Part shown: piece after piece, positions 1 to 40,588 of the stretch
Position numbering within the stretch: position 1 is the first letter of the stretch
Layout of the letters: every line of letters begins with the position of its first letter
Virus record (IMG/VR): IMGVR_UViG_3300011612_000001
Location: 1-64,000 of that record
Origin: an uncultured virus (IMG/VR IMGVR_UViG_3300011612_000001)
Taxonomy: Duplodnaviria > Heunggongvirae > Uroviricota > Caudoviricetes
Reading direction: 5' to 3' (one strand)
Length of the DNA stretch: 64,000 nt
Made by a program: the position numbers and the translations under genes
The notes under the pieces: model-generated
The model's input: the letters and a program-made list of their open reading frames with translations, nothing else
The model's database searches: none
What the model was told of the DNA's origin: nothing

Positions 1-73
1 CTCATGATGAACCCTGTTCCATGGCTCCAGATGACAAACATGATCTCATATCAGGGACTTGTTCGCACCTTCC
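1..73 (-). mobile_element. Left end of an IS5-family insertion sequence (continues out of window)
   Basis: Reverse complement starts GGAAGGTGCGAACAAGTCCCTGATATGAG, the IS5-type terminal repeat; flanked by CTAG (74-77), the YTAR target of IS5. Confidence 0.9.
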
Positions 74-1010
74 CTAGCTTCACTCATAGGCTTGTTCGGA
101 TCATTCCGCCCCGGAAAAACATAACGGTAGTTCCCTGTCATGATCTTGAGTTCTTCTAGTAAATCTAACGCTTGAGTCGATAACGGTACAAGATGTGGCC
201 TGCGCATTTTCATCCTTTCAGCAGGGATTTCCCAAATAGCGTTACCCAGATCAAATTCTGACCATAATGCCGCACGTAATTCGATGGTTCTCACACCAGT
301 GATCATTAGTAGTTTCGTGGCAAGCAGGACAAGCCGACTTCCGGTGTAACCGTTTAAAGCGCGTAGAAAATCAGGTATCTCATCAGCCTTTAGGAACGGG
401 AAGTGATTTGATTGATGTACTTCGAGAGCACTAGAGAGATCAGCCGCAGGATTAAACTCAGCCCTCCCTGTGGCGATAGCATAGCGGAAAACCTCAGAGC
501 AGCGCTGTCGTACCTTACGCATCTTTTCTAACGCCCCGCGCTTTTCAATTTTACGCAGCACGTTAAGCAGCTCTAAGGGCTTAATCTCACCGACTGGTCT
601 TATACTACATACGGGAAAATATCGTTCTGAAAAGCTTCCATGATGTCCGAGGCATATCCTGCCGACCATTTGGCTGACTTCATTTGATGCCACTCTCTGG
701 CAATCTTTTCGAAAGCATTCTCAGACTTGGTTAGCAATGCGAGCTTCTGCTCTTTTCGAACCTCACTAGGGTTCTTTCCTTCCGCGACCAGTTTTCGGGC
801 ATCGTCGCGACGGGAACGCGCATCGGCAAGTGTGATTGTTGGATAAACACCAAGCGAGATCATTTTGGGTTTACCAGCAAAACGATAACGGAACCGCCAA
901 CTCTTGCTTCCATTAGGTTCTATAAGCAATGACAGCCCTTGCCCATCTCCAAGTGTATAGGCTTTAGCTTCAGGCTTAGCGCGGCGAATCTGCATATCGT
1001 TTAAAGGCAT
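74..1010 (-). pseudogene. P4-type tyrosine integrase, frameshifted near 605 and truncated by IS5
   Basis: N-terminal arm-binding domain (MPLNDMQIRRAKP..GDGQGL..SWRFRYRFAGK) ends at DIFPYVV*; the catalytic part (RPVGEIKP..TGVRTIELR..KMRRPH) continues in another frame and stops at the IS end. Confidence 0.9.
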
Positions 1011-1160
1011 GTGTATAGGAATTAAGACCGAACAGGAACATATACACATTCAGTACCGGATTCTACTGGATGGTTACGGACAACCATGGACTAAAGAGAA
1101 TAAAAATCGTTATAAATCAGAGTATTCACGGACTAATACGGACGTTTGAGGAACTTGAGG

Positions 1161-1195
1161 TGGTGCCGATAATAGGAGTCGAACCTACGACCTTC
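1161..1195 (-). repeat. att site: 3' fragment of tRNA-Thr(CGT) including CCA
   Basis: TGGTGCCGATAATAGGAGTCGAACCTACGACCTTC is the reverse complement of the thrW 3' end; 33 bp are directly repeated at 13560-13592. Confidence 0.92.
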
Positions 1196-1311
1196 TATTC
1201 CAATGACTGGCTGCGCAAGTCATTGATTCTTCGAATCGAATGCGCTGTCACTGATAATCGGTACTAACACAACCAGTAGTAGTTGCCCCTGAATATTAGA
1301 TCGGGGGGAAC

Positions 1312-2523
1312 ATGAAATACAAGCCGAATGCGTACTTAGTCAGAGAAAGATCATCATGCTATGCCGTCAAGGTGACCTTGCCGTTTTATATGCGTTCCCT
1401 GTTTGGGAATCGAACAGCGTTCATGCGTTCAACTGGCACGACAGATATTCGGCAAGCCCGAGTCATTCGTGACCGTATAATGTATGAGTTTTTCGCCATC
1501 CGTGATCGACTGAAACCAAAGCCACAGGGAAATAACGTTGATCGCGTATTGAAAGAACTACGTCAGGTTGACCAATACATCACCCAGAATGTGGGGATCG
1601 ACTTCGCCACGGCTCGTGTATGTCCTTCCCTTGTCCAACTGCGTGATGAATTCATTGTCCAACACAGTGACAGGCGCAAGCTGTCCACCCTGAGCAAGTA
1701 CATCAAGGCCGTGGAGGTGTTCACGGCACATTTCAGGTGCAAGGATTTCCGCCTGCACGAGATCAACAGAACGATGGTGACTGACTGGCTCGACAGCGCA
1801 AAACTTGAACGGGCAACACAGACACTGGCAAATTATTTGGGCTGCTTGTCCCAACTGGTGGCGCTGGCCCAGAACCGCTACCACGACGCGCCAAAGGAGA
1901 ACGTCTTCACAGCCCATAAGCTGGACGTGCGACATGATCGCGAGAGTTACGAACCATTCAGCGGTGATGAACTGGCGCAGGTTGTGGATTTGCTTGATCA
2001 GGAGATGAAGGACGTCGCGTTGGTGGGGATGTATACCGGGATGCGGCTTAATGAAATCTGTTCGCTACAGATCGACAATATCAAAACGGTAGAGGGGGTT
2101 TGGTGTTTCGAGGTGACAGAGGGCAAGACGCGCAATGCGGCCCGACAGGTTCCCATTCATAGCAGGTTACAAACTCTCGTTAAACGGCTTATCCAGAATA
2201 ATCACAGCGGCTTCCTGTTCTATCATGCCAGTATAACTGAACGAGCAGACGGCAAGCGCTCTACATGGCACACACAGCGATTCACACGGGCTAAACGGAA
2301 GGCGCTGGGAGAGAAGGGGACAGAAAGAAAGGTCTTCCATAGTCTGCGGGGGATGTTCATCAGTCAGCTTGATCGCGGCGGCGTTCCAGAGGACAGGATT
2401 GCACTGATAGTAGGTCACGAGAGAGGAAAAACTGAATCATTTCGCACCTACAGCCAAGGGGCCAGCATGAAGGAGCTTTCTGGTTATGTCGAGTTGGTGA
2501 GCTACGAATTTTTAGTGCAGTAA
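1312..2523 (+). CDS. Tyrosine integrase of the satellite-like element
   Basis: 403 aa; TGMRLNEI, GKTRNA, HSLR, VGH and RTY catalytic motifs; 116 bp from att. Confidence 0.92.
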   Translation: MKYKPNAYLVRERSSCYAVKVTLPFYMRSLFGNRTAFMRSTGTTDIRQARVIRDRIMYEFFAIRDRLKPKPQGNNVDRVLKELRQVDQYITQNVGIDFATARVCPSLVQLRDEFIVQHSDRRKLSTLSKYIKAVEVFTAHFRCKDFRLHEINRTMVTDWLDSAKLERATQTLANYLGCLSQLVALAQNRYHDAPKENVFTAHKLDVRHDRESYEPFSGDELAQVVDLLDQEMKDVALVGMYTGMRLNEICSLQIDNIKTVEGVWCFEVTEGKTRNAARQVPIHSRLQTLVKRLIQNNHSGFLFYHASITERADGKRSTWHTQRFTRAKRKALGEKGTERKVFHSLRGMFISQLDRGGVPEDRIALIVGHERGKTESFRTYSQGASMKELSGYVELVSYEFLVQ

Positions 2524-2614
2524 TTGAGCATTACGGATTTGTAGAATCCGGTAAACGCTCAAGACATCACCACCGACCCGATGGTATGATCATACATCCA
2601 GTACATAATAGAAG

Positions 2615-2881
2615 GTGTTGTGTATGACTCGTGAAGAAAGACAGTTGCACCAATTGGTAAAATCCCGCCTCGGTGTTTTCACAAACGGAGCCAGATTCTC
2701 GGATAACCAGATGGGGATTACCTTGAACCTCCCTGATGGTGATAAAAAAACAATCTGGGGAGAATGGCGACATATGTCTAAAGTCGGAAGACTCACGGAT
2801 CGAGTAACTATGTTGCAACACGCTATTTATGAAGAATACCCGGAGTACCGTAACCGTATCCCTCAGGAATGGGCAAGGTAA
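2615..2881 (+). CDS. Hypothetical protein
   Basis: 88-aa ORF ending at the convergent terminator. Confidence 0.5.
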   Translation: MLCMTREERQLHQLVKSRLGVFTNGARFSDNQMGITLNLPDGDKKTIWGEWRHMSKVGRLTDRVTMLQHAIYEEYPEYRNRIPQEWAR

Positions 2882-2890
2882 CGCAGGCAT

Positions 2891-2921
2891 AAAAAAACCG
2901 GATGGTTTTACCCATCCGGTT
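2891..2921 (-). terminator. Intrinsic terminator
   Basis: AACCGGATGG/CCATCCGGTT stem next to an A7 run (U-tract on minus strand). Confidence 0.7.
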
Positions 2922-3129
2922 AGCTTACGTCTTTCAATTTCTGTTCAGTCGCGTAGTACAAGATCGCGGCTTCAAGACCATGTGTCGCCACGCGTGATAA
3001 AAAGGTGCTGCGGTGTACACCCAACTTTCTGGCGAGCGCTGACACGTTCAGCAAGTTGGCATCGTCCAGCGTCTTAACCTTGATCGACAGCAGCGGCGAG
3101 TTTCCAACGCCCAGAATCTTCAATTGCAT
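2920..3129 (-). CDS. Small HTH protein (excisionase or regulator candidate)
   Basis: NVSALARKLGVHRSTF HTH-like motif; upstream GAGG SD. Confidence 0.6.
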   Translation of the reverse strand: MQLKILGVGNSPLLSIKVKTLDDANLLNVSALARKLGVHRSTFLSRVATHGLEAAILYYATEQKLKDVS

Positions 3130-3224
3130 ATTTTTACCTCTCCATAATAGCGGAGGGCGGCAATTGCCGCCCCAAAACCGTTAGCTCCTGGGGTTTTATC
3201 CCGTTGGGCTGTTACCTTGCCTGA

Positions 3225-4268
3225 TTACGAAGCATCGTTAGTGATGGCAGTTACCAGATCCGGGCGGTAGCAAATCGGCAACAGGCTGAACTCACTGGAA
3301 AGCGTAATGTTCTTATACGCATCGGTGCTGCTATAGATGCGGAAGTCCACCACGTCAGCAAAGGCCAATTCGAGATTTCGTGATGTAGGCCCGACAAGGT
3401 TGGTAAATGGTGATGCCTGATCAGCGCTTAACGGCTTCTCGAAGACCGGAACCATGAAGCCCTGATCTGCACCGACGCCGTAGAAATCGGTATCGGACAT
3501 CTCGACTACAGTCACGTTATCCAGGACGTAATAGCTGAATGCCGGATTGATCTCTTTATTGAATACCAGACCATCAGGATCAAGCACACCATACTGCACA
3601 AGCTGGCGAACCGATGGGTTAAAACGCAGCTTCTTGAACAGGTTGGAACCCGCGAACAGGTAGATGCCTTTCAGCAGGGAAGCAAGGCCACCCATGCGGC
3701 GTTTCATGGCACTGACCTCATCGGACAGGGATTCTAACGGATCAGCAGCAACCCCCGTGTAGATGGTTCCGGTGCTCTGGTCGTAACCAAATTCCTCTGA
3801 CCAATCCAGGATCGGGCCATCTGCGGTGTATTCCATATCGGTGACACGATGACGGAACAGGCTTTCAGCAAACATGCGTTCACGAGTCGCAGCGAAGCGT
3901 TCATAGTGAGCCAGGCTTTTAGCTGTCACAGCGTCCAGGACGTTGGCCTGTAGCGAAGAGCCGATCTTACGGAATGGCTGCACATCAGCAGCAGTGATCA
4001 CATCCTGCGTGGGGAACAGAGGAAGCTCGATCAGATGATTAGCTGCTTTTGGCTTCGGTGTGCTTCCCCATTCGCTGGAAAATCGATTTGCTGCCGGGGC
4101 GATGGCGATGGTGTCAGCCTGAGCGTTCAGGATGTCCAGACTGGTTTTAAACTGGTCAGTAACGTCACGCTGGAAAATGTTCAGGTTGGTTAAGATACGG
4201 TTTCGAGCCGGAACGTTCGCAAAGGTCGAACTGTAATCGACGTATGAAAAATCTTTTGTAAGAGCCAT
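3225..4268 (-). CDS. Major capsid protein, lambda gpE (Phage_cap_E)-like
   Basis: 347 aa; pattern LPLFPTQDVITAADVQPFRKIG..RFAATRERMFAESL..DWSEEFG..FKKLRFNPSV recognised as gpE-family; follows a small decoration-like gene. Confidence 0.8.
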   Translation of the reverse strand: MALTKDFSYVDYSSTFANVPARNRILTNLNIFQRDVTDQFKTSLDILNAQADTIAIAPAANRFSSEWGSTPKPKAANHLIELPLFPTQDVITAADVQPFRKIGSSLQANVLDAVTAKSLAHYERFAATRERMFAESLFRHRVTDMEYTADGPILDWSEEFGYDQSTGTIYTGVAADPLESLSDEVSAMKRRMGGLASLLKGIYLFAGSNLFKKLRFNPSVRQLVQYGVLDPDGLVFNKEINPAFSYYVLDNVTVVEMSDTDFYGVGADQGFMVPVFEKPLSADQASPFTNLVGPTSRNLELAFADVVDFRIYSSTDAYKNITLSSEFSLLPICYRPDLVTAITNDAS

Positions 4269-4292
4269 GTTGTGATGTCCTTATCGGTAAAA

Positions 4293-4637
4293 TTATTGAG
4301 CGTCAGCCTGCGCTAAGCGGATATTGCCGGATGCAGTCAGGGCAGCGAGGGCAGCAGCACCAACTGATGTCCCCATAACGGCGATCACTGTTTCCGGGCG
4401 GATGTAGACGCCACGGTCAGCAACGATGATGTTTGCATCTGTACCAGCGCGGTGATGGCTCAGAACCAGTAATGCATCATTGCCTGAGGTAAATGCAGTG
4501 CCATCAGCCTTAATAACCGAACCGGGCTGCACTTCGACAGCCAGGTTTGGGATGTTGATTGTTTTCACTGCAAAATTAGCGTCGGCCTGATAGGTCACGA
4601 CATCATTAAAGGTGCGTTGGGATTCGCCCATTTTCAT
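4293..4637 (-). CDS. Head decoration protein candidate (gpD-like)
   Basis: About 114 aa, Ala/Val/Gly-rich, VQPGSVI motif, ends ALTASGNI; directly upstream of capsid gene; GGAG SD. Confidence 0.6.
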   Translation of the reverse strand: MKMGESQRTFNDVVTYQADANFAVKTINIPNLAVEVQPGSVIKADGTAFTSGNDALLVLSHHRAGTDANIIVADRGVYIRPETVIAVMGTSVGAAALAALTASGNIRLAQADAQ

Positions 4638-4771
4638 AAAAGTCACTCCATAAAGTTGTTGTTTGCTGGCCTGTAGGCTTTGGCCTTTCGGGCCGTATCG
4701 TCAGAATTGACGGCGTGCGAGTACAAAAGAGGTCGCCAGTGGCGACCTTCCTTTATTTGTTTCTGCATCAG

Positions 4772-4800
4772 AAAAAAGGCGGGCGGCGAAGATACCGCCC
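4772..4800 (-). terminator. Intrinsic terminator ending the putative ncRNA
   Basis: GGGCGGU/GCCGCCC stem followed by GCC-U6 on minus strand. Confidence 0.7.
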
Positions 4801-5189
4801 CTGAGGAGCAACGAGGATCTTTATCGTTATTTTTCTGAGAGATGGGAATGTGCAGCGCCCTCTACGGGCGTTAGCTCTACTAACCCGGCTTTACCGGGCT
4901 GGAATAAGGGAGCGACAACGGCGGGAGACCTCTGAATCCCTACGCCGTGCGCTCGATGCCGTTTTATGTCCGGCAGACAGCCCGAGGAGAGCCGGGACTT
5001 ATTGCGGTTGTTAGACCGCTGGCAAACCCCATCGCGGAAGGCTAATACCACGGCAGGGGAATAAGCGGCGCTGGAAAGCAAAGATGGCCCGTGCGAGGTA
5101 TCAAGGAGCCAGCGCCTGAGAGGAGATTAAATTACGTTCAATTGGCTGTAGTTCGCAGTAGACTCTTTCGAATCCATTAATCACCCTAT
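4772..5189 (-). ncRNA. Putative structured non-coding RNA of about 420 nt
   Basis: Bracketed by promoter and terminator; roughly ten hairpins, most G-U pairs and a GAAA tetraloop favour the minus strand; no credible ORF. Confidence 0.6.
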
Positions 5190-5195
5190 GTTAGT

Positions 5196-5224
5196 ATTTT
5201 ACCATGAATGATAATCATTATCAA
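5196..5224 (-). promoter_or_regulatory. sigma70 promoter overlapped by a Fur-box palindrome
   Basis: TTGATA-17 bp-TAAAAT with extended TGn; TGATAATCATTATCA (5209-5223) is a perfect 7-1-7 Fur box. Confidence 0.7.
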
Positions 5225-5281
5225 CAAATTTCACGTAAATTCAGTCGGTAACTCATCCTGTATCGGCAATTCTGCCTTGAA

Positions 5282-5650
5282 TCACTCAATTCTTTTAAGC
5301 GGTGTGGATTCGATGATGTGCGAATAGCGTTCAGGGTCTGAGGCGACCACCTGGCGGCATTTATCCCGCGCCAGACGGAGCATTTCCGGATCAATCTCGT
5401 GGGCCTGGAAGCCACCTGCCCCAGCACCAAGCGCCTTTTTGATCTTCGCGGTTTTCTGCTTGGTGTTAGTCACTGGCGCGACTGCTGGCGCTGGCTTCGT
5501 TGATGGTTGCCAATCGGGATGGCGGATTAAATAGTCATCCACGGCGTTTTTTACATTCTGTTTGAGCTGTTCGGTTTCCATCTGTTCGATGGTGCGCCCG
5601 TTCATGGCTGCGGCTATGGAATCGCGAACGGTTTTGAGCAAGTTTTTCAT
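5282..5650 (-). CDS. Hypothetical protein
   Basis: 122 aa, AAGGA SD, part of leftward operon. Confidence 0.7.
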   Translation of the reverse strand: MKNLLKTVRDSIAAAMNGRTIEQMETEQLKQNVKNAVDDYLIRHPDWQPSTKPAPAVAPVTNTKQKTAKIKKALGAGAGGFQAHEIDPEMLRLARDKCRQVVASDPERYSHIIESTPLKRIE

Positions 5651-5750
5651 TTTTGTTTTTATTCCTTAATAGGATAACCAGCCCGTCACGGGCGCAACGA
5701 TACGCCACCCTGAAAGGGCAGGTATGGTAAAAGGTCTATGAGATTCAAGG

Positions 5751-6407
5751 TCAGGCCGTCGCGGTCTGGCTCGCTGTTGTGGTTTGTTGGCTTTTTCTAA
5801 TGCAGCCCGCTTTACGCGCGTTAGCTCCGCTAACGTCACCTCGTGACGCTGGACTAACGCGGCGAACAGGGTTTATTTGAATAGGCCGCGATTTGCTCGC
5901 AGCTTTTCGGGCCACAACACGGCGGTATTCCACGCATAGCGGATCATTGTAATCTGGCATTCGTGGGGCCATTGCGGCCTCGGTAACCCCATCCCCCCGG
6001 AGGGACATCACCACAGTGAACAACGGCAAGCCCAGCGTCTGGCAGATTTCAGATAGCGTCGCCCCTTCACTCCACATAGTGTGGATTAATTTTCCATTGT
6101 TCGGGTTGGCAAATCGTCTGCATTTCGGATTGTAGGAATTATTATATAAATCAATAACCTTTTCCTGCGGCAGACGCAGCAGCAATGCCACGCGTCCTGG
6201 AGAATATCCCGCGATCAACATGTGCTTGCACCTCTGCATAACGTTGCCATCGCGGCAACGCCGTTTATATAGGCGGGTGAGGTCAGGTAATTCTGGGCCG
6301 GATAATGGTTCTGGGAGTTCGGGTAGGTCTGGAAGATCTTCTGGTAAATCTGTTTTTTGTTCTGGGTCGTTCTGGGTGGCGGTCAGCGCCTTGCGTTTCT
6401 CAATCAT
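5751..6407 (-). CDS. Protein with two HTH-like motifs
   Basis: GYSPGRVALLLRLP and GATLSEICQTLGLP; GAGGA SD. Confidence 0.65.
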   Translation of the reverse strand: MIEKRKALTATQNDPEQKTDLPEDLPDLPELPEPLSGPELPDLTRLYKRRCRDGNVMQRCKHMLIAGYSPGRVALLLRLPQEKVIDLYNNSYNPKCRRFANPNNGKLIHTMWSEGATLSEICQTLGLPLFTVVMSLRGDGVTEAAMAPRMPDYNDPLCVEYRRVVARKAASKSRPIQINPVRRVSPASRGDVSGANARKAGCIRKSQQTTTASQTATA

Positions 6408-6413
6408 TATTCC

Positions 6414-7454
6414 TCACATTAAAAATTTAGGCTTGCGATCCTCGTTAATTTCATCTGGCGGTATCACGCCGACCTTTTCCCACACTAAACGGCAGGCATG
6501 ACGCCAGCCAGTCGCGCCAGCAGTGAGCGCCCATTTATAGGCAGCTTCGGTTAAACGCCCGTCACTCTCAAAGGCCATGCCCTGCCAGGGGGCATCATCT
6601 GACTCTGGTTTATTAGGTTGAAACGGTGGATCATCGTCCTGCTCATCCTGGCTCATCTCATGACCACCATTGGTGAGATCATCGCTGCTACGGTTATTGT
6701 CAGATTCCACGCTATAGCGCTGTCCAGCAGTAGACGTGGCAGACTCAGAGGCCATGTTAGCACTTTGATCAGAGTGCTGGCCTGCGGTCGCATCAGTTGA
6801 TGGTGTAGCAGCGGGTGCTGCCTGTTTTGCTGCCTGTTCTGCCTGTGGTTTAACCTTCTCATCGGATTTGCCATCTTCCTTAGCGGTTGTTTCGATATTC
6901 CAGCCCAGCACGGCTAATTTCTCTGCTGTAATCTGAAAAGCGAATTGCATCACTTCCGAATCTGAGAGATCCAGGTCTGCGATAGCTTTCGCCATTTCCT
7001 TTATCCCATGATTGATAGCCAGGGCATCTACTGCCTCGGATTTTCTAAGCAGAGAGTCAAGCTGAGACTTTTTCAGCTTCTTGTCTTGAGGTGTAACTTT
7101 CGCATCAGTCATGCGAGAAACGATGACATCAATTGGCGTACAGGTGTACGTATTGCGCCAGCCATCCTTAAAAGTCTCCTTACCTACCGTCAATAGGCCC
7201 AGCGACTCCAGTTTGTCGATCCTCTCCTGTGCTCCTGACCTGGCCCGCCCCATCACTTTCGCGATGGTGGGGATACTCTGATAACATTTCTTACCCTGCA
7301 CCTCGAAGGTGTAAAAATGGTTGAACCACTTTAGGTCGGTATCAGTAACACGCATTACATCCCCGGAAGGTGTCATCAGGTTTTTGATCCCTTTTAACCG
7401 TGTGGCAGACTGGTCAAAAATTTCTTTATTTTCTGTATTCGTTACGTCCATCAT
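6414..7454 (-). CDS. Winged-HTH protein, replication initiator candidate
   Basis: CYQSIPTIAKVMGRARSGAQERIDKLESLGLL wHTH pattern, low-complexity linker; GAGGA SD before ATG 7454. Confidence 0.65.
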   Translation of the reverse strand: MMDVTNTENKEIFDQSATRLKGIKNLMTPSGDVMRVTDTDLKWFNHFYTFEVQGKKCYQSIPTIAKVMGRARSGAQERIDKLESLGLLTVGKETFKDGWRNTYTCTPIDVIVSRMTDAKVTPQDKKLKKSQLDSLLRKSEAVDALAINHGIKEMAKAIADLDLSDSEVMQFAFQITAEKLAVLGWNIETTAKEDGKSDEKVKPQAEQAAKQAAPAATPSTDATAGQHSDQSANMASESATSTAGQRYSVESDNNRSSDDLTNGGHEMSQDEQDDDPPFQPNKPESDDAPWQGMAFESDGRLTEAAYKWALTAGATGWRHACRLVWEKVGVIPPDEINEDRKPKFLM

Positions 7455-7614
7455 TTCCTCGCTGGTTTTCTGTTTGGTTGTCTGCTTTCGTTTTATCAAT
7501 GATTTTTGCCGCTGTTTGCAGCAATTCACTACACAATCTCGCCATCGGCATATCGCGGCGATTTGCTTCCGTGAGTAACGTTCGGTACGTCTCATCCGGG
7601 AATGAGATATTCAT
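7426..7614 (-). CDS. Ribbon-helix-helix (CopG/Arc-like) regulator
   Basis: MNISFPDETYRTLLTEANRRDMPMARLCSELL; directly upstream of Rep candidate; AGGAG SD. Confidence 0.65.
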   Translation of the reverse strand: MNISFPDETYRTLLTEANRRDMPMARLCSELLQTAAKIIDKTKADNQTENQRGNDGRNEYRK

Positions 7615-7760
7615 GGTTCAAGTCTCCTGTTGTCAGACATGCGGATTTGATCCTGCTATCGCGGATTGCGATCAGGATTCGGCGGCCTTGATGGCCTGCA
7701 TTTGATTTGGTCTGCCATTTCTTGAGGCGATTTGATTGGCTCGGCGTTGCGCCGCTGCGA

Positions 7761-8198
7761 TCAGGCTGGCGACTTCCCGGCAACAGCGCTATAACCGTAG
7801 TTTTCCAGAGTCTCCACACCGTGGGTGGCAACCAGGAACATGATCACCTGTTCGGGCGTCATATCCAGATTGAATTTCTCACGGTACAGACGGCGATAGC
7901 TCTGGAGCACCGGGGCCAGTATCTCAGTCATCGATTGACCGTCAGCGAACTGGCGGGATAACGGTTTCAGGATCGCCTTGACCGCTCGGGCGCTCTTTGC
8001 CTTCTTTCGTTCCTGTTTCAGGATATGAAGTGCAACAGCCAGTTGCGGATGCTTTGCATGTGCGGCGTCTGCACCACCATTACGGCTAATGAACGACCAT
8101 AGTGCGGTTTTGGTGTACGTGCCGTACATGATGGCGTCTGCGATCTGCTCGCCTGTCATGGTGGCAGGGGTGATGCGTTGGGATTTAGGTTTGTTCAT
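7761..8198 (-). CDS. Hypothetical protein, first gene of leftward operon
   Basis: 145 aa, GGAG SD, downstream of promoter 8301-8329. Confidence 0.7.
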   Translation of the reverse strand: MNKPKSQRITPATMTGEQIADAIMYGTYTKTALWSFISRNGGADAAHAKHPQLAVALHILKQERKKAKSARAVKAILKPLSRQFADGQSMTEILAPVLQSYRRLYREKFNLDMTPEQVIMFLVATHGVETLENYGYSAVAGKSPA

Positions 8199-8300
8199 TG
8201 GGTTCCTCCGTAGGATTGAAATTATTACCGGAGGGTCATTCTGTACCCATTTAGTCAGGAGTCATCACCGGGCGGCGACGCACCTTAATTTGTTAAAACC

Positions 8301-8329
8301 ATTGTATCAGAAATACTTACAAATAGCAA
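8301..8329 (-). promoter_or_regulatory. sigma70 promoter
   Basis: TTGCTA-17 bp-TACAAT with TGn. Confidence 0.65.
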
Positions 8330-8869
8330 GCGCAATTAAAGAATGCAATGATTTCGTTATCTTACTATGGCGCAATCCTGATTTCAATGTCAAGATCTTT
8401 TTGATTAACGCTAAAACGCTCCAGAACGCGTTCTAAGCGATTCTAAGGCGTTATGGCTACTATCCTATTACCTGATGCGTTATAAGCGCTCTACGGGCTT
8501 CCTGTGAAGCCTCGGTTGGGTTGATACGATGAAGTTGGCACGGATGTTGCTTATCACACCCCGGCCCACCCCCTCGCGGCCCCATAGACTCTCAATCTAC
8601 GATTTCGTGACAGTGTTTCCAAATTACTGCGCGGGCTGTCGCCCTTGCTGCCCAAAAGGTGGCGAGCCTGTTCGGTCAGAACAGGATAACGAGTCACCGC
8701 ATGGGCGATGCATATCGCGAAGCGCGGAGCGTATGCGACTGAACAGAGACCAGAAAGAAAGAAATGGAGGTCACAACCGGAATCGAAAAGGTGTTGGTCG
8801 TTTGCCCTGCGGTAAGGTCTTCACGGCCAGGGAAGACCGCATAGGATTTTAATGATCTATTAAAGGTGT

Positions 8870-9006
8870 TGATTTAGTTAACGGGTTTAGTTTACAGATT
8901 TAGTTGTTACTGGTTATAACTGGTATACCCCTTTCTGTTATAACAGGTATACCCCCTTCTGTTATAACTGGTATACCCAGACCACCTGTTATAACAGGTA
9001 TACCCC
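8870..9006. repeat. Iteron-type replication origin
   Basis: Four copies of GTTATAACWGGTATACCC at 8913, 8937, 8961, 8988 next to an AT-rich tract with three TTTAGTT. Confidence 0.75.
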
Positions 9007-9799
9007 TTCCCAGTGAAAATCTCCTACCCATGCCTCCGGCGCTGGCGCATCTTTTCTCAAAATAAATGCAGATAAATCCCCGTTAAATACGCGCTAATTC
9101 GACCAGTCCGGGTCAGTCTGAGACAATTTCCGCTCGTGGTAGTGGTCAAGTCACGACCTCCGCGATAGTGTGGAAAACATAACGATCAGGTCTGAGCGCC
9201 GCTCCAATTGCGGCTTCGTCAATTCTGTCTGCCGATATCGTGGCTTGCCTGTTCATCGCGGTGCTAAACCAAGTCCGCTCACAACGAAAAAATAATTCTT
9301 CGCCAAAAAACCAGAAACGATGAGAATCGCCTCGCTTTTAAGCCCGATTTTCAGGCTCACGGGACGCGTTCTGGAGGGCGCTGTGATTGCGGTTATCGTG
9401 ATTCAGATCGTGACGGCAAACGCCGCTAAGGGTTTCTGGTGAAGCGTGGTAAGGGTTGCCGGATGGTGGAAGGGTTGAGGCCGGAAATGTTGTGGGATGA
9501 GTTAAAGACCAGGGCCGGGAACCGGGCCATATCGCCCGTCATGTTGGTGGGGAAAATTGGCCCATAGGGCAGAGGGAAAAGTGAAGCCGTGAAAGTGAAG
9601 ACTTATAGTCTCCACTCTCCAAGTGGTTGATAATACGTAGATGAGCCTGCTCACATCATCAGACAGCCTTTATATGCATCGTTTATGCAGGATCAGGCAA
9701 GGTTTATTCACTTCTCTGATCTGGTGCTCGGGACTCGGGCGGGACTCGATAACCTGACCAGTAAGATATTTGCGAAAGAAGGTTGACTTTTCTCGCGGG

Positions 9800-10005
9800 G
9801 TGTGCTCATACGTCAAGCACATCTGTTGATGTGCAAGGATATTTTCGTGAACGAGACACACAAGAGACGGCCTCTTTAGATTCCCTCCCGGCGGGGGCGG
9901 TGTGCTCACACGTCAAGCACGTCAGACATTGAGTCACCAGGATATTTCCCGGCCTGCCAGCCTCAGGCATGGCCCCTTGTTGGTGTTCCTCCCCGGCGGG
10001 GGAAG
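9800..10005. repeat. Degenerate tandem duplication of a unit of about 100 bp
   Basis: GTGTGCTCAYACGTCAAGCAC at 9800 and 9900; AGGATATTT at 9836 and 9939; CCCGGCGGGGG at 9887 and 9992. Confidence 0.75.
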
Positions 10006-10020
10006 GCATTTACTGCCAAT

Positions 10021-10358
10021 TAAGACCCGTTAAGGCCCGTTAATGCCAATAAAAAATAAATAAAAGTCAAAACCCCCAATAAAACCCATAACTATCAAAT
10101 AGTTACACTTATTTTCCGGTTCAAATTAAATCGAATTAAATCGGATTAAATCAATTTTAATCAGTTTTAATCGTGGAAATAGCCCTGCCTGTCTCGCATG
10201 GTAGCCCTGAGTAGATCCTTCGTGTAGATCCTTCACGTACATCTCCCGCGTGTGCATCTCTCGCGTGTACCTCCCGTGTGTGCATCTTTTTTGTGCATTT
10301 TTCGTGCATTTCTCCGTGTGCGATTCCCGTGTGCACTTTTTGATCATTTTGTGCGATC
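10021..10358. repeat. Arrays of short phased repeats
   Basis: TTAAG(A/G)CCCG-like x3, TTWAATC x5 at exact 10-bp period (10126-10172), and about 10 GTG(T)GCA-like units with pyrimidine tails (10210-10358). Confidence 0.8.
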
Positions 10359-10447
10359 ATTAAATTAAATCACTTTCCATGTTACTGTTTTTGATCAAAA
10401 ATACATCCATTGAAAGATTCAGAGCCGCACGGCGGCAAGGGGAGAAT

Positions 10448-11035
10448 ATGGGTAACGCAATGGTCGCGTTGAAAACCGCCGACGAAGTGAAAGCAGTCAG
10501 CGCGGAGTTAGCAAAGAACAAAAAGACGAACCTGTTTCGCTGCCTCTGGGCGATGCAATTTGAAAGCGCTCTTCGGTTCGGTGACGCCGTCAAATTGACG
10601 TGGGATCAGTTCGCGGAGGGTAAGACGCATCTTTCTATAAAGCAGGAGAAGACGGGGAAAATTCATAAGGTCGCCATTACCCCGGCTATGCGCTCCATAG
10701 TCCAAGCTCGCCGGGAAGAAGCAGCAGACCGCCCAAAATTCGGTGACTACATATTCAGCCTTTCTGATCTGAGATCGAAGGGTAAGCCAGTTTCACACAA
10801 CGCAGTGCTGACGGAGTACGGCAAGTGCGGACGCCGTGCAGGTTTCCAGGATGTGGGAAGTCATACACCACGCAAGAGCAAAGGCCGCATTCTCTTTGAG
10901 AACGGCGCACCGCTGGAGCACATCACAAAGTTGTTGGGCCAGGCCAACCCGGCTTCGACCCTGTTTTACATCGGGTTCACGCAGGAGACGGCTGACACAT
11001 TAGCGGGAGAATATTCTCTCGGGGAGGAATGGTAA
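10448..11035 (+). CDS. Small tyrosine recombinase (catalytic domain only)
   Basis: ALRFGD, QEKTGK, HTPRK, LGQ and TLFY motifs; GGGGAG SD before ATG 10448. Confidence 0.85.
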   Translation: MGNAMVALKTADEVKAVSAELAKNKKTNLFRCLWAMQFESALRFGDAVKLTWDQFAEGKTHLSIKQEKTGKIHKVAITPAMRSIVQARREEAADRPKFGDYIFSLSDLRSKGKPVSHNAVLTEYGKCGRRAGFQDVGSHTPRKSKGRILFENGAPLEHITKLLGQANPASTLFYIGFTQETADTLAGEYSLGEEW

Positions 11036-11277
11036 TGATGAAAAAATGCACAACAAAAGCACCATCAGCAACGGTTTTAACAGTAATGGCCCTACTGGCC
11101 TGCCAGCCATTAGCGGCACACGCAGGCCGGATCACGATGCAACTCACTGAACAAGAGGAGACAGCAAACGGCAAAACCTTATGCCGCTACGAGAATTCCA
11201 TTTACAGCTTCAACTTTGTAACGCGGAGCAAGCATTGTCCGTCCGTGAAGACCTTCGACACGGAGGACTCAGACTGA
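11029..11277 (+). CDS. Small secreted protein
   Basis: Signal peptide (..LALLACQPLAAHA-like), two Cys in mature part. Confidence 0.65.
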   Translation: MVMMKKCTTKAPSATVLTVMALLACQPLAAHAGRITMQLTEQEETANGKTLCRYENSIYSFNFVTRSKHCPSVKTFDTEDSD

Positions 11278-11301
11278 GAACAAACACTATGAGGTACGCA
11301 A

Positions 11302-11445
11302 TTGAACGAAGATCGGGAGCGGTTCAGAAGTCACCTGACAGCACCACAGCAGAAAACAGACTGGTCAGGTTTATGGTGGTGTATCGCCATCGTTGTTGGA
11401 ATCACGGCGGCGTCAGTCGTCGCCTTGTTTGGAGATAAATTTTGA
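11302..11445 (+). CDS. 47-aa single-TM peptide
   Basis: TTG start after GAGGT; MNEDRERFRSHLTAPQQKTDWSGLWWCIAIVVGITAASVVALFGDKF. Confidence 0.5.
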   Translation: MNEDRERFRSHLTAPQQKTDWSGLWWCIAIVVGITAASVVALFGDKF

Positions 11446-11717
11446 TGAGGAAGAAGAAGGAAGAAGCTCTCGCCAGCTTCGTCTGGTGTGGGGCCGTGGT
11501 TCAGGTCTACACGAAGACGGTGACGTTTGCCGGGACGGTTATACAGCGGCATCTGCTACCGAAGAACCTAAGGCAGGCAGTAGATAAGGCGGCGCAGGCT
11601 GAGTGCTTGGCGGTAGACAGCCCGCGCCATATTCAACAAAACCAACGGAGAGTCAGGAATGTCGAACAGCAGCATTATGGGGTTAGCGCTCGCGCTGTGC
11701 AACGTAAGCAACGGTAG
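11442..11717 (+). CDS. Hypothetical protein
   Basis: TGATG coupling to previous ORF, GGAG SD. Confidence 0.45.
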   Translation: MMRKKKEEALASFVWCGAVVQVYTKTVTFAGTVIQRHLLPKNLRQAVDKAAQAECLAVDSPRHIQQNQRRVRNVEQQHYGVSARAVQRKQR

Positions 11718-11821
11718 AACCGTCCGAATACCTGCTATGACAGGAAGCCAGCTACACCTGTTAATGATGTGGCTACAGGCTTTGAGAGGATGATACGAGG
11801 GGGCATGATGCCCCCTTTCTT

Positions 11822-12262
11822 TCAAATCCTATTAAGTGGCGGAGTCTCGCCAAATCTCGCAAGGTAGCTTTGAAAGAATGATTGTTCGAGCGTCGCGGGA
11901 TGATCGCTGATCCACATAAACATTTTCAGGTGTTCATACGGATAACGCTGCTGATATCGTTCATCACTCCAGTAGCGCTGCCCGGTCTGGTGCTTACTCT
12001 GCTGATACTGAGAACTGAAAGAGCGAGCCAGATCGCCTGTACGGTGGCAGAACAGTTTAGCCATACCAATGTACAAAATCCCGTCCCGGTCATCATCCAA
12101 CACTCGCGGTATAGTGAGCGCTTGCCCTGCATCGTTAAAACTGCGTAGAACGTACACACCGCCAGAATTCAGGTATGCAGGGTTTACAGTGGAGTAAAAC
12201 TCGCTATTTGGCAGAAGTAGATCGGAAAGATGCTGTTTGAAACTATAGCCGCTGAGATCCAT
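11822..12262 (-). CDS. GIY-YIG-like nuclease-fold protein
   Basis: GGVYVL..ILYIG..R..LE..PPLNR pattern. Confidence 0.6.
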   Translation of the reverse strand: MDLSGYSFKQHLSDLLLPNSEFYSTVNPAYLNSGGVYVLRSFNDAGQALTIPRVLDDDRDGILYIGMAKLFCHRTGDLARSFSSQYQQSKHQTGQRYWSDERYQQRYPYEHLKMFMWISDHPATLEQSFFQSYLARFGETPPLNRI

Positions 12263-12296
12263 TTATTTTATTTCCCTAATGCCATTTCACTGGTGA

Positions 12297-12689
12297 TTAG
12301 TTGGCTGCGCAAGTCCCGTAGTATTGAGAAGCTAAAATGCCATCAGGATAAACCATACTCCTGCTATGCACCGACTCGCCGTTAGCCATCACGGTTGTAA
12401 CCGTAACATTACCGACTGGTGTAGTTTCTATGAAAGAGTTTCCATTTACCCCATTAGGGACAGGTGTCACCTCCACAGAGCTAACATTGCCAGTCATGTA
12501 CACTTTGTTCGTCTTGGTGTCGATGATGAACGAGAAGACCATAGGATTTTTTGCATTATGAATACCCTCGTGATCACTGTATTTCGGGTAAACACATTTG
12601 AAAGATTGAGTCTCCGCCTGAACTCCGAAAGCAGCAGTCCCCAGAATAGACAAAGCCAAACACTGGCAAACCAGACGATTGATCGCCAT
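12297..12689 (-). CDS. Secreted/periplasmic protein
   Basis: Signal peptide ending VQA; Cys near both ends of a beta-rich mature domain. Confidence 0.7.
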   Translation of the reverse strand: MAINRLVCQCLALSILGTAAFGVQAETQSFKCVYPKYSDHEGIHNAKNPMVFSFIIDTKTNKVYMTGNVSSVEVTPVPNGVNGNSFIETTPVGNVTVTTVMANGESVHSRSMVYPDGILASQYYGTCAAN

Positions 12690-13559
12690 TCATATCCTCA
12701 CGAACATCATTAATTTAGTCCTACCAAAATACTCTGTGCGCCGATTTTAGACAATACAAGCCTAATGCCCGTTGGTGGTCGCCTTAAAACATTGCGTTAG
12801 CCGCTCGCGCTAATTTGATCTCTGCTTCTTCTTCCTGCTTTCTCACAAGCCAGGCTTTACCCTCTGGAGTTGCCAGAAATTTACGGGCGTGGATCTTACG
12901 GTTGTTGCGTTTGATTGCTGCTACATTCTTCGCCATGATTGCCTCCAGATCGGCCCGCCGTTGGGCCACAAAGGCAGGCTATAAAAAAGCTCACTGATAA
13001 GTAAACCTGCAAAATGTCACTGAAAACGAGTTCGACACCCAATAAGTGACCATTACGTGCCGTGTTGGGCACATAAGGAGAGGCGGAGCGAAGCGACTTC
13101 CGCAGTAGATATGATCCCCTCGCGGGAATGATGACGCCTTGTCATGGCTTCTTATCAGGTAGCCGTTGTGATCCGGTGGCTGAAACCGTGGCAGAGCCAG
13201 CCTCTTTCCCGAGCTGGTTAGTCTTCCCAACATTACGCCTGTTTATTCGCTGCACTGCCATCACGGCAGGTTGCATCATGGAGCGCCGCACGAAGCGCGA
13301 GCCACATTGACAAGGGTTCTGGGAAAGGATTAGAGACGCTGGCAACGTCATCGGCTTCAAGTTGTTGGCGGAACGATGTGACTGTTCACACTTTGTACGT
13401 GTTTGAGCCTGGAAACGACACGCCGCTATGAGTTAACATCCCAATTGCCACTATTAACCACAGCGGCAACTGTTACTGAAAGAATCACTGATAAAAAGAT
13501 CGTACATTGAGAGATAAAATCTCTGCAATCGATTGATTTATAAGGATTTTAATGTGTGA

Positions 13560-13603
13560 GTGCCGATAATAGGAGTCGAACCTACGACCTTCGCATTACG
13601 AAT
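13560..13603 (-). repeat. att site: 44-bp tRNA-Thr(CGT) 3' fragment at the satellite/prophage junction
   Basis: GTGCCGATAATAGGAGTCGAACCTACGACCTTCGCATTACGAAT; reaches the anticodon loop, lacks CCA; TGRCACA arm-like repeats at 13669-13727. Confidence 0.92.
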
Positions 13604-13739
13604 TAGTAGCACCACATTTAACTAACTGTTTTTAAAGGCCACAACCGCATTCACACTGCTATTGTTGATGGCACATGATGAAAGACAACGAATAATGATT
13701 TTACGTGCGTGACACAAAGATGGCACACGCACATATCGA

Positions 13740-14063
13740 TCACATCACCGGCGCTTCATCATCCCGCGTTCTGTTAACGAGCCACGTCACCACGCCTATC
13801 ACTTCCACATCATCAAGAGCTTCGCCTTCTATCGCTTCCCCATCTTCCGTGATTAACGCTTTACCCGCCGGCCTGGCAAAATAGTTGCGGCCAAGCCAAC
13901 TGACCAAAACGTACTCGCCCGCTTTTGGCCGCGAACCCTTTTCGACAACCGCATAGCCTGAAGACGTCTCAATAACGAGACTGTTCGCATTAATGCCGCA
14001 TATCGATTCCGGAGTTAACCGTGACTCAACATAGTCTGTTGCCGGGGACGGGAACCCGCTCAT
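13740..14063 (-). CDS. Short UmuD/HumD-like SOS protein
   Basis: MSGFPSPATDYVESRL start and IGVVT end; LexA box upstream. Confidence 0.75.
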   Translation of the reverse strand: MSGFPSPATDYVESRLTPESICGINANSLVIETSSGYAVVEKGSRPKAGEYVLVSWLGRNYFARPAGKALITEDGEAIEGEALDDVEVIGVVTWLVNRTRDDEAPVM

Positions 14064-14082
14064 AATGACCTCCTTACCTACA

Positions 14083-14098
14083 CTGTATACGTATACAG
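14083..14098. promoter_or_regulatory. LexA (SOS) box
   Basis: CTGTATACGTATACAG = CTGT-N8-ACAG, 20 bp upstream of the start codon. Confidence 0.85.
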
Positions 14099-14230
14099 TA
14101 GTTTTAAGCGGAAAGGAGATCAATACGAAGCGGCCTATCAATGCACCTCAATGATGATGCATTTGTGATTGTTAGGTGCGGGCATCTCACCCATGCGGTA
14201 CACTTTGAGCCATCAAAATTTGGTGCATTA

Positions 14231-15289
14231 ATGAACATGAAAAATCAAAGAATTTTATTCCTGGATTATTTGCGCGTCGTTTCTTTTGTCGTGGTAGTGA
14301 TTGGTCATAAATATGGTGCGTTAGTCAGGGATCATCGTTTTGATGATTCACTGCACGTAACAATCAGGATGGCGTGTCAAGTCATTTACTCTATCTGTGC
14401 GGGTGGCGCTCTTGGTGTAGTGCTATTCTTTATGATATCGGGATATATAATCACTCATGTACTAAAAAAAGAAAATGCTCTTGAGTTTTATATAAAGCGA
14501 TTCTTCAGAATTTATCCATTATATGTAGTCGCAATTATAAGCGAAAGCATTTATCTTTATTTTGGCAAGGGTATTCAACCTGATATACATGATTTAATAC
14601 CGAGAATACTGCTCCTTGGTGATTTCTATGGATTACAACCAGCACTTGGCGGGGTAGAGTGGACATTAAGACTTGAAGTGATGTTTTATGTTTATATGGG
14701 GGTTGTTAAGCTTTTACGGCTCAATGTTAATGGTAATGTTTTAGCTTCTGTATTGATGATGTCTTCTATAGCAGTATGGAAAACTAACCCATTCCCTACC
14801 TTCCAGACCTTTAGTTATGCATATGTCTCTATTTATGTGCATTTCTTGTTTATAGGTGTACTGATTTACCTGATTGACAATAAAGAGGTATATATACCAT
14901 TAGCCATTTTCTATATTGGAGCCATGTTTTATATACATCTTGATTTAGTGCAGTTGTATAATCCATTTTGGAAAGAGTTTAGCTATGGCATTTATGGCTT
15001 AACAGTCTTTTCACTGTCCTGCTACTTCAAGCGTTTTTTTATCTTCGATAACAGAGTTATAATCCTTTCTGAAATTACATATCCAGTTTATCTTTTTCAT
15101 AACTGGTTATGGAACATTTTAAAAGATGCATTAAAAATAATTAAATTGCCATTAATTCCGGTAGACATTCAAGTAATATTCATTCTTTTCATTATCTGTT
15201 ACTTGCTAAATAAGTACATTGAAAATAGCGCAATAAAATACGGAAAGCGATTCGTTAACAGTTTGACAATAAAAAACACCGCCCAATAA
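14231..15289 (+). CDS. Acyltransferase family 3 (O-antigen acetylase-like) moron
   Basis: LDYLR, FFMISGYI, FYIKRFFRIYP, WTLRLE and YPVYLFH motifs; multi-TM; AT-rich; opposite strand to tail genes. Confidence 0.85.
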   Translation: MNMKNQRILFLDYLRVVSFVVVVIGHKYGALVRDHRFDDSLHVTIRMACQVIYSICAGGALGVVLFFMISGYIITHVLKKENALEFYIKRFFRIYPLYVVAIISESIYLYFGKGIQPDIHDLIPRILLLGDFYGLQPALGGVEWTLRLEVMFYVYMGVVKLLRLNVNGNVLASVLMMSSIAVWKTNPFPTFQTFSYAYVSIYVHFLFIGVLIYLIDNKEVYIPLAIFYIGAMFYIHLDLVQLYNPFWKEFSYGIYGLTVFSLSCYFKRFFIFDNRVIILSEITYPVYLFHNWLWNILKDALKIIKLPLIPVDIQVIFILFIICYLLNKYIENSAIKYGKRFVNSLTIKNTAQ

Positions 15290-40351: not shown

Positions 40352-40426
40352 TGGTGCCGGGCAAAGGAATCGAACCTCTGACGCGCAGCTTACAAGGCTG
40401 CCGTTCTGCCACTGAACTAGACCGGC
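40352..40426 (-). tRNA. tRNA-Thr(TGT)
   Basis: Cloverleaf, loop CTTGTAA, TTCGA, CCA; one acceptor mismatch. Confidence 0.85.
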
Positions 40427-40431
40427 TTATT

Positions 40432-40507
40432 TGGTGGAACCCGATGGAATCGAACCATCTCCTAATGCTCTTCAGGCATCCGCGCGAACCATCTACGCCA
40501 GAGTTCC
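40432..40507 (-). tRNA. tRNA with GAA (Phe) anticodon, atypical D-arm
   Basis: GGAACTC/GGGTTCC acceptor, loop CTGAAGA, GTTCGATTC, ACCA. Confidence 0.7.
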
Positions 40508-40513
40508 GTAATT

Positions 40514-40588
40514 TGGCGGGACAGGAAGGATTCGAACCTTCGACCATTCGGTTAACAGCCGAACGCACAACCGCTGTGCTTCTGACCA
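40514..40588 (-). tRNA. tRNA-Asn(GTT), degenerate
   Basis: Loop CTGTTAA, GTTCGAATC, GCCA; two acceptor mismatches and A at position 8. Confidence 0.65.

Follow-up and report, generated by a model that had tools for sequence, protein, structure and literature searches.

The closest described counterpart of the element considered here is EcCICFT073, a Gram-negative phage-inducible chromosomal island (PICI) whose only structural genes are those for a capsid protein and a head decoration protein (Fillol-Salom et al. 2018, PMC6092414). In the CFT073 record, its genes run in the order integrase, AlpA, D5-type primase, PF03864 capsid, PF02924 decoration and a few small genes, and the two head genes, which adjoin AlpA and the D5-type primase, are confirmed by their profile matches (PF03864 5.4e-51; PF02924 2.5e-17). 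The available text of PMC10111431 reports a capsid gene in 21 of the 29 reference Gram-negative PICIs, and "capsid morphogenesis" is one of the five PICI core components of SatelliteFinder in the available portion of PMC10085698. A satellite with a capsid gene, with or without a decoration gene, and with nothing else structural is therefore a known kind. Here, we describe a 12.4-kb element of comparable content that is inserted at a tRNA gene near the left end of the IMG/VR virus record IMGVR_UViG_3300011612_000001; the window that we analyzed is the first 64 kb (positions 1 to 64,000) of this 65.7-kb record.

The first-pass annotation of this window held that no known satellite has a capsid and a decoration gene alone, and hence that the element represents a distinct satellite class. 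The premise does not survive comparison with EcCICFT073, which has exactly that pair, and capsid-bearing satellites without other structural genes, already known from EcCICFT073 and from 21 of 29 PICIs, leave no room for a new class on this ground. We instead regard the element, on balance and with modest confidence, as a helper-dependent satellite: its way of working would be that of a Gram-negative PICI, but the Enterobacterales lineage to which it belongs is a separate one, hitherto undescribed. No published description of the family was found in the literature searched, supplements not included.

Boundaries and Integration Site

Exact 33-bp direct repeats at 1163-1195 and 13560-13592 enclose 12.4 kb, as the first-pass annotation had stated, and the repeat has two matches in the window against 0.00 expected from 100 shuffles. 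An identical 33-mer lies in Raoultella terrigena (locus L006) inside a tRNA-Thr(cgt) called by ARAGORN (658-731), with a second copy 12,410 bp away. By repeat search, comparison with L006 and contig breaks at 1166/1167, the distal attachment (att) repeat (1163-1195, minus strand) is the 3' end of tRNA-Thr(CGT), a gene that we take to be thrW in E. coli naming, and the CCA end follows this left copy at 1160-1162. The tRNA-proximal copy (13560-13603, minus strand; repeat search, contigs and L006) extends 11 nt deeper into the tRNA, to a junction with a prophage at 13603, beyond which the DNA is unrelated. A whole tRNA was called by ARAGORN at neither copy, and a complete myovirus prophage, running from 13.6 to beyond 64 kb, separates the element from the rest of the tRNA.

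Contigs assembled from other runs fall on the same boundaries. At the left end, contigs break at 1166/1167 in all four runs, and the left flank in run X3 differs. At the right end, contigs of runs X7, X10, and X15 pass 13603 into other sequence, which reads by eye, unaligned to the L006 tRNA, as the remainder of the tRNA. Because independent genomes thus fix both boundaries, the 12.4-kb element is a discrete insertion at the tRNA 3' end, integrated in tRNA-Thr(CGT) by its own tyrosine integrase. This 403-aa enzyme (1312-2523, plus strand; PF00589 1.7e-18, phrog_1 1.2e-37) reads inward, convergent with the main operon, and its R, HxxR, and Y motifs are seen by eye in the translation. It is 92% identical to the L006 integrase at a dN/dS of 0.07, in keeping with its earlier description as intact-looking.

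A Head Module Under Purifying Selection

The gene at 3225-4268 (minus strand), previously noted as capsid-like, encodes a major capsid protein of the lambda gpE family. Its product matches PF03864 at 1e-17, scoring 64.7 bits against a cut-off of 22.9 over profile positions 8-328 of 329, and the family profile matches the solved Phi92 gp124 capsid protein at 3.4e-11 among PDB sequences. Judged by these profiles, it is a full-length member of PF03864, an HK97-fold family. The nearest phage capsids, which share 21-26% identity with it by tblastn, are not of the lambda type; they come from phages of 96-155 kb that resemble phi92, phAPEC8, and Otagovirus and are presumably annotated myoviruses.

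Directly upstream of the capsid gene, a position that is fixed in the loci compared, lies a gene for a decoration-like protein (4293-4637, minus strand) of 114 aa, counted from a conserved ATG; the open reading frame (ORF) extends to a GTG at 4646. Its identification as a decoration-like gene, also proposed in the first-pass annotation, stands in part. The protein matches phrog_2680 ("head decoration") at 3.6e-6, and it is this match, the fixed place upstream of the capsid gene, and the contact of one of 18 homologues with PF02924 (E 0.063) from which the label derives. The decoration-like profile found no match among PDB sequences at E<=10, and the AlphaFold model of the protein (pLDDT 55.7) is too poor for use.

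Strong purifying selection acts on the capsid and decoration-like genes, the most constrained part of the element. In the dN/dS comparison that the first-pass annotation had proposed, made against close relatives at dS 0.2-1.35, the capsid gene has a ratio of 0.05-0.085 and its decoration-like partner one of 0.07-0.12. Across the four closest relatives (L004, L005, L006, and L015), the capsid is 92-99% and the decoration-like protein 80-96% identical, and the neighboring proteins range from 29 to 99%. None of the element ORFs scanned against Pfam, PHROG, and NCBIfam matched a portal, terminase, protease, scaffold, or tail family, and since the longest ORF is of 403 aa, there is no hidden portal or large terminase. 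The earlier statement that portal, terminase, and tail are missing is thereby upheld.

Comparison With Known Satellites and Phages

EcCICFT073 resembles the element in size (~11 kb), in being bounded by an integrase, in having its own replicon, and in carrying a PF03864 capsid and a head decoration gene as its only virion genes. The differences are nevertheless many. EcCICFT073 has AlpA (PF05930, 3e-18) and a D5-type primase, and the element has neither; its genes are all co-oriented with the integrase, whereas in the window the integrase lies on the plus strand and the early and late operons on the minus strand. The head pair reads capsid then decoration in EcCICFT073 and decoration-like then capsid in the element. 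Moreover, EcCICFT073 has a lambda-like helper and a decoration protein that clearly belongs to PF02924, neither of which the element shares.

Set against the general features of Gram-negative PICIs, the element shows a site-specific integrase with att repeats around an island of the 10-20 kb class and a capsid morphogenesis gene (PF03864 1e-17). For the AlpA-, MerR-, or Stl-type regulator expected beside the integrase, neither PF05930 nor any other such family was matched at E<=0.01, in a scan that detects the AlpA of EcCICFT073 at 3e-18. In place of a primase-replicase with a downstream origin, there is a Rep-like gene with upstream iterons, and no D5_N or primase family was matched. The genes are not co-oriented with the integrase.

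These observations bear directly on the possibility that the element is a true but very divergent Gram-negative PICI, one that shares ancestry with EcCICFT073 and has had its AlpA and primase modules replaced. The common size class, the integrase-bounded layout, and the pairing of a PF03864 capsid with a decoration-type protein and no other virion genes would all be expected of such a relative, and regulator and replication modules are reported to be exchanged among satellites (PMC10085698, available text). Yet tblastn of the element proteins on EcCICFT073 returned no match at E<=0.01, the window capsid profile aligns with the EcCICFT073 capsid c1499 at an hhalign probability of 0.2, and the missing PF05930 and D5-type primase are accompanied by a convergent integrase and a reversed head pair. 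We consider shared descent with EcCICFT073 unlikely. The absence of AlpA and primase, the convergent integrase, the reversed head pair, the lack of similarity to EcCICFT073, and the phi92-type capsid together argue instead for a separate lineage that is PICI-like in its working.

Among other satellites, SaPIbov5 offers a parallel in Ccm, a satellite-encoded phage capsid homologue that acts without a portal or terminase of its own and is used to redirect capsid size, according to the available text of PMC8569155. SaPIbov5, however, is Gram-positive, and in the same text Ccm is recognizably homologous to the helper capsid and fills pentamers; the element adds a decoration-like partner. Capsid-forming PICIs (cf-PICIs) likewise supply their own capsid protein, but as described in the available portions of PMC10085698 and PMC13612085 they also encode a portal, a protease, head-tail connectors, and terminase subunits, none of which was matched in the element.

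P4-like satellites are similar in size (~12 kb) and in integrating at a tRNA gene, and P4 itself is able to live as a plasmid and has a decoration function, Psu. Unlike the element, P4 has no capsid gene, and neither Sid, Psu, Delta, nor the alpha primase was matched by Pfam or PHROG in the element. No PHROG annotation of the element pointed to a phage-inducible chromosomal island-like element (PLE) or a PICMI (phage-inducible chromosomal minimalist island) in a general scan, in which their marker profiles were not applied. The first-pass annotation had allowed that the element might fall into an existing satellite family; measured against Gram-negative PICIs, cf-PICIs, and P4-like satellites, it lacks several of the features that define membership.

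Outside the satellites proper, the "twilight-zone" HK97 mini genomes are, like the element, small and equipped with an integrase, Rep-type genes, and a capsid, and they too lack portal, terminase, and tail. As the available text of PMC13669383 presents them, these genomes average 8.75 kb, derive from gut metagenomes, and have encapsulin-like capsids with a scaffold gene, whereas the capsid in the window is of the gpE/phi92 type. The phages of phi92, phAPEC8, and Otagovirus type, the nearest capsid relatives, differ in being 96-155 kb long with full virion modules, and the capsid identity of 21-26% is too low to name them as helpers.

A Family of Related Loci

Capsid relatives form 29 clusters in a set of 5.8 billion proteins, and 93 representatives are found at E<=0.001 among 1.84 billion proteins. 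A capsid match at E<=1e-8 occurs in three of 401 sampled genomes of the order, one of which is the Raoultella genome used as the center. Ten loci lie in species-representative genomes of Rahnella, Biostraticola, Raoultella, Winslowiella, Enterobacter, Citrobacter (two), Pseudenterobacter, Buttiauxella, and Dryocola. To these are added three IMG/VR contigs, one of which, L017, is a 4.7-kb fragment that was left out of the analysis.

The common order, namely, the 145-aa gene, Rep-like gene, helix-turn-helix (HTH) gene, 122-aa gene, decoration-like gene, capsid gene, and small HTH gene, recurs in the ten genome loci and in two viral-contig loci, with L013, a truncated remnant, departing from it, and again in four further loci around more distant capsid matches (28-35% identity). 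Integrases and integration sites vary within the family, from tRNA-Thr and tRNA-Gly to sites beside thiamine-kinase genes, which flank five loci. Portal, terminase, protease, and scaffold PHROGs were matched by none of 85 ORFs near the capsid gene in 15 loci, the scan having covered those ORFs of 140 aa or more, as yet unassigned, that lay no further than 9.5 kb from that gene; its tail-category matches are tape-measure-like proteins and one lysin-like gene outside an element only. The search for syntenic homologues recommended in the first-pass annotation has thus returned conserved small elements of the same gene order, with none of the 85 ORFs a portal, terminase, protease, or scaffold gene.

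In most relatives, a 600-720-aa tape-measure-like protein is encoded beside the head pair (PHROG tape-measure matches from 1.4e-11 to 1.4e-80). It is found at L010:6846-9005 and at the same position in L008, L009, L011 (split), L012, L016, L023, and L024, with further such genes at L022:10987-12534 and L025:7159-8979. The subgroup to which the window belongs has a conserved non-coding unit in place of this gene. Tape-measure genes are almost unknown in satellites according to the available text of a 2025 preprint (PMC12822802).

The head pair does not always share the history of its neighbors. In their HTH and tape-measure-like proteins, L023 and L024 are 74-94% identical to other members, and the 145-aa protein of L024 reaches 91%, but their capsids are only ~33-35% and their decoration-like proteins 42-44% identical. 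Such close non-head genes around a divergent head pair suggest that the pair moves as a module.

In E. coli, the two records inspected (L001 and L002), from 611 with a best match in the 90-95% band, hold only the integrase, small HTH, capsid, and decoration-like genes at 90-92% DNA identity, and both pieces are cut by insertion sequence (IS) elements just upstream of the decoration-like gene. At least 80% of the element is covered by none of 5021 matching records. A capsid gene whose product is 22-23% identical to that of the window is present on four E. coli records typed as non-mobilizable plasmids, three of them circular with 13.2-13.7 kb and the fourth of 39.6 kb. The one inspected, L028 (CP134895.1), also encodes a protein annotated as a tape measure and a relative of the 218-aa HTH protein of the element, and a 111-aa gene directly adjoins its capsid gene on the upstream side. 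These plasmid records may be episomal cousins of the family. For the nearest outgroup capsids, P0056 and P0057, nothing was found of their genomic context in viral contigs.

Replicon and Early Operon

The core genes all lie on the minus strand and read toward the integrase, and the early operon begins near 8200. Its first gene encodes a 145-aa protein (7761-8198, minus strand) with homologues called in 11 of 12 related loci compared and no family match. Three promoter-like sites upstream (8301-8393, minus strand) emerge from a consensus scan in a number not above that of shuffles. A 62-aa protein (7426-7614, minus strand), 82% identical to its L006 homologue, is possibly of the ribbon-helix-helix (RHH) kind: the window copy has no match, and relatives have sub-threshold matches (E 0.021-0.12), so that the RHH gene reported earlier is borne out only at this level and only in relatives.

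The Rep-like initiator (6414-7595, minus strand), whose real start is probably near 7454, matches phrog_8102 ("replication initiation protein") at 8e-7 and, short of the Pfam cut-off, HTH_36 at 4e-4; it is the gene that had been called a winged HTH, a label to which the sub-cut-off HTH_36 match lends partial support. Proteins at the same position in two relatives (L006 and L009) match replication-initiator PHROGs, and the initiators vary among family members. Four iterons with a 19-nt core and spacings of 24, 24, and 27 follow an AT-rich stretch at 8912-9005 (plus strand), 4 copies against 0.02 expected, which vindicates the iterons claimed earlier and marks a candidate origin. All eight relatives examined have different direct repeats at this place, as would be expected if initiator and iterons change together. 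To judge from the Rep-like initiator with its own iterons, the element carries a plasmid-type replicon, plus a small recombinase. Two ORF-like stretches at 8529-8852 and 9272-9505 are kept in relatives; both are of implausible composition, the window copy of one is interrupted by an in-frame stop, and they are probably conserved non-coding DNA of the origin region.

Downstream of the initiator, a 218-aa protein (5751-6407, minus strand) with two HTH-like helical domains has homologues called in nine of 12 related loci compared. Its model (pLDDT 69.7) returned no Foldseek match in the PDB at E<=0.001, only weak paired-domain-like rows, and the Atlas yielded HTH_23 leads only. A conserved 122-aa protein (5282-5650, minus strand), with homologues called in seven of 12 related loci compared and no family match, completes the early genes.

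A Putative Insulated Late Unit

Between the 122-aa gene and the decoration-like gene lie ~630 bp without a conserved ORF. A strong promoter-like TTGATA-17-TAAAAT (with TG) at 5224-5196 is followed on the minus strand by a ~470-nt conserved untranslated stretch that ends in terminators (site and stretch, 4801-5224; consensus scan and relatives' alignment). The two terminator-like hairpins, at 4748-4730 and 4800-4781 (4730-4800, minus strand; consensus scan), stand upstream of the late genes, which follow in the order decoration-like (114 aa), capsid, and 69-aa HTH. The ~470-nt leader is kept in four close relatives, in which indels break every reading frame, and the pairs of the second hairpin are kept through compensatory changes. 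In 10 of 12 loci, the 260 nt upstream of the decoration-like gene contain at least one terminator-like hairpin, its sequence differing between loci. A consensus fold of the leader from five sequences has a covariation term of ~0, and Rfam matched neither the leader nor, at E<=0.1, any part of positions 1-14200. The segment 4722-5224 (minus strand) may be either a non-coding RNA or a leader subject to regulation.

Between the terminators and the decoration-like gene, a conserved 92-nt block contains a dyad (4699-4712, minus strand; sequence reading) that may be an activator site, and a further terminator-like hairpin (2896-2921, minus strand; consensus scan only) closes the late operon. This arrangement suggests that the head genes are set apart from the early operon as a late unit whose expression would depend on antitermination or activation. 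RNA contigs of run X15 cover the early region at a depth of 126 and end at 4801, where the DNA contigs continue; the depth is 9.4 for a contig that spans the decoration-like gene and reaches into the 5' part of the capsid gene. Coming from contigs of one metatranscriptome study, the stop at 4801 is a weak hint of gated late expression.

A Probable Helper-Dependent Satellite and Its Alternatives

If the element is a satellite, induction of or infection by a helper would lead it to excise and to replicate from its iterons. The head module would be expressed from a late unit set apart from the early operon by the two terminators, and this unit should need an antiterminator or activator, possibly the helper's. 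The element capsid protein would then build, or co-assemble into, shells on the helper's portal and scaffold; the helper terminase would fill these shells and the helper tail complete the particles. The 218-aa bipartite-HTH protein (5751-6407) and the 69-aa HTH protein (2920-3129) would be candidates for control of the packaging site, late genes, or excision. That the head pair is under stronger constraint than the other genes of the element and seems to be swapped as a module argues for a real function tied to a helper.

Several results weigh against this satellite reading. No phage of the collection has a capsid more than ~26% identical to that of the element, which is low for co-assembly with helper parts. 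Element DNA (4293-8300, blastn) has no match in phage records, and with none in the neighboring prophage either, no shared cos or pac site was found. Family scans identified no terminase small subunit or Rpp-like protein in the element, and the decoration label is a weak one. Among the joints listed for four runs, which come from contigs only, all breaking at the repeat, there is no excised-circle junction. The circular 13-kb plasmid cousins indicate that a plasmid-like life without packaging is possible. Furthermore, deletion of either the capsid or the decoration gene of EcCICFT073 left lambda plaque formation below normal (PMC6092414), so neither head gene accounts for the interference, and the capsid genes of PICIs are reported to be dispensable for transfer assisted by a helper in the available text of PMC10111431. 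Even for the model satellite, then, the deletion outcome and this dispensability leave such genes without a settled role.

It is in this respect that the family matters: the function of lone capsid and decoration genes is unsolved in EcCICFT073, where they are apparently dispensable, and the lineage in the window appears to have acquired such a pair from a different capsid clade, providing a second system in which to find what the pair does. The family also indicates that current satellite finders, which rely on AlpA and primase, probably overlook satellites that bear a capsid gene and a replicon of the plasmid type.

A bolder version of the satellite reading, which we hold to be doubtful, is that the family consists of satellites with a plasmid-type replicon that parasitize large virulent myoviruses of the phi92/rV5 type or their unsampled relatives. 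They would build their own small decorated heads and live either integrated or as a 13-kb plasmid, and cousins that supply a tape-measure protein would re-tailor both the head and the tail of the helper.

Alternatively, the element may be an integrative plasmid-like island that is never packaged, its capsid pair serving only against phages, for instance by poisoning the head assembly of an incoming phage. The iteron and Rep replicon, the resolvase-type recombinase, the circular plasmid cousins, and the failure of the scans to find a packaging gene or site would fit such an island, and capsid homologues are known to interfere with helper phages (PMC8569155, available text). Co-assembly poisoning is nonetheless implausible at 21-26% capsid identity unless the target phages are unsampled, and PADLOC gave no match. 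In addition, near-identical head modules in Rahnella, Biostraticola, Raoultella, and E. coli need a transfer route, and no conjugation or mobilization gene was matched in the element by Pfam or PHROG. We therefore rate a purely anti-phage island as improbable.

Still less likely is a portal-less HK97-fold entity that forms shells without any helper, whether as a "twilight-zone" mini genome or as an encapsulin-like compartment. Metagenomes have indeed yielded small genomes in which an integrase and Rep accompany a capsid gene and portal, terminase, and tail are missing, but those in the available text of PMC13669383 are mostly from the gut and pair encapsulin-like capsids with a scaffold, in contrast to the gpE/phi92-type capsid and decoration-like partner of the window. 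No cargo-loading or scaffold gene was matched, and the tape-measure-like gene of the relatives points to tailed particles.

A decayed prophage that lost its portal, terminase, and tail genes, to which the IS-cut pieces in E. coli and the want of any record covering 80% of the element (0 of 5021) might be thought to point, is already contradicted, much as the first-pass annotation had argued against simple decay, by a conserved family of small elements in the same order with no portal, terminase, or protease among 85 flanking ORFs, by strong purifying selection on the head pair, and by two intact ends that are identical in an independent genome (L006).

Remaining Genes of the Element

The last gene of the late operon encodes a small HTH protein of 69 aa (2920-3129, minus strand), with sub-threshold HTH matches in all four homologues scanned and a tblastn match adjoining the capsid gene in each of the 12 loci searched; it may act in excision or regulation. 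Between the integrase and the late operon, an 88-aa ORF (2615-2881, plus strand; phrog_31850 1.7e-29) lies in what appears to be a variable slot, for positions 2475-3028 are swapped for 774 unrelated bases in run X10. A second apparent slot, at the end of the 122-aa gene, is marked by the replacement of 5189-5472 by 334 unrelated bases in run X15.

The second recombinase of the first-pass annotation is a short tyrosine recombinase of 218 aa (10379-11035, plus strand) that matches PF00589 at 7.2e-18 and phrog_216 at 5.9e-30. Three relatives (L004, L005, and L012) have a serine invertase/resolvase in its place, and its role may be multimer resolution. Upstream of it, at 10122-10340, a run of TTAAATC-like repeats is followed by about eight GTGCA-containing repeats, which could be recombination or partition sites. 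The cargo (11029-12689, strand unassigned) comprises proteins of 82 aa (phrog_4641), 91 aa, 146 aa, and 130 aa, read from ORF translations and the PHROG scan. PADLOC found no defense system among 15 element ORFs, with one chance-level row, and the NCBIfam scan of the element ORFs gave recombinase rows below cut-off only.

The Neighboring Prophage and a P4-Type Remnant

The prophage to the right (13603-64000) is joined to the tRNA fragment in the anticodon-loop region. It encodes sheath, baseplate, portal, both terminase subunits, its own capsid protein, and a Q-like antiterminator. It also has genes for tRNA-Thr(tgt), tRNA-Phe, and tRNA-Asn at 40352-40588, a UmuD-like gene at 13740-14141, and an O-acetyltransferase-like gene at 14141-15289. 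The virus record stops short of the far att site of the prophage, and the remaining record (62000-65696) has no tRNA and no copy of the prophage junction. A single 16-nt DNA match connects the element with the rest of the window, where the element proteins have no tblastn match. With no sequence in common, the prophage is not an obvious helper; it is a complete myovirus, and its capsid is unrelated to that of the element, the latter as the first-pass annotation had surmised.

To the left of the element (46-1049) lies a P4-type integrase broken into two overlapping ORFs. An intact homologue in a relative (L015:12899-18622) is followed by genes that match Psu-like PHROGs. The remnant and these Psu-like genes together place a P4-like satellite, the element, and the prophage in tandem at one tRNA gene.

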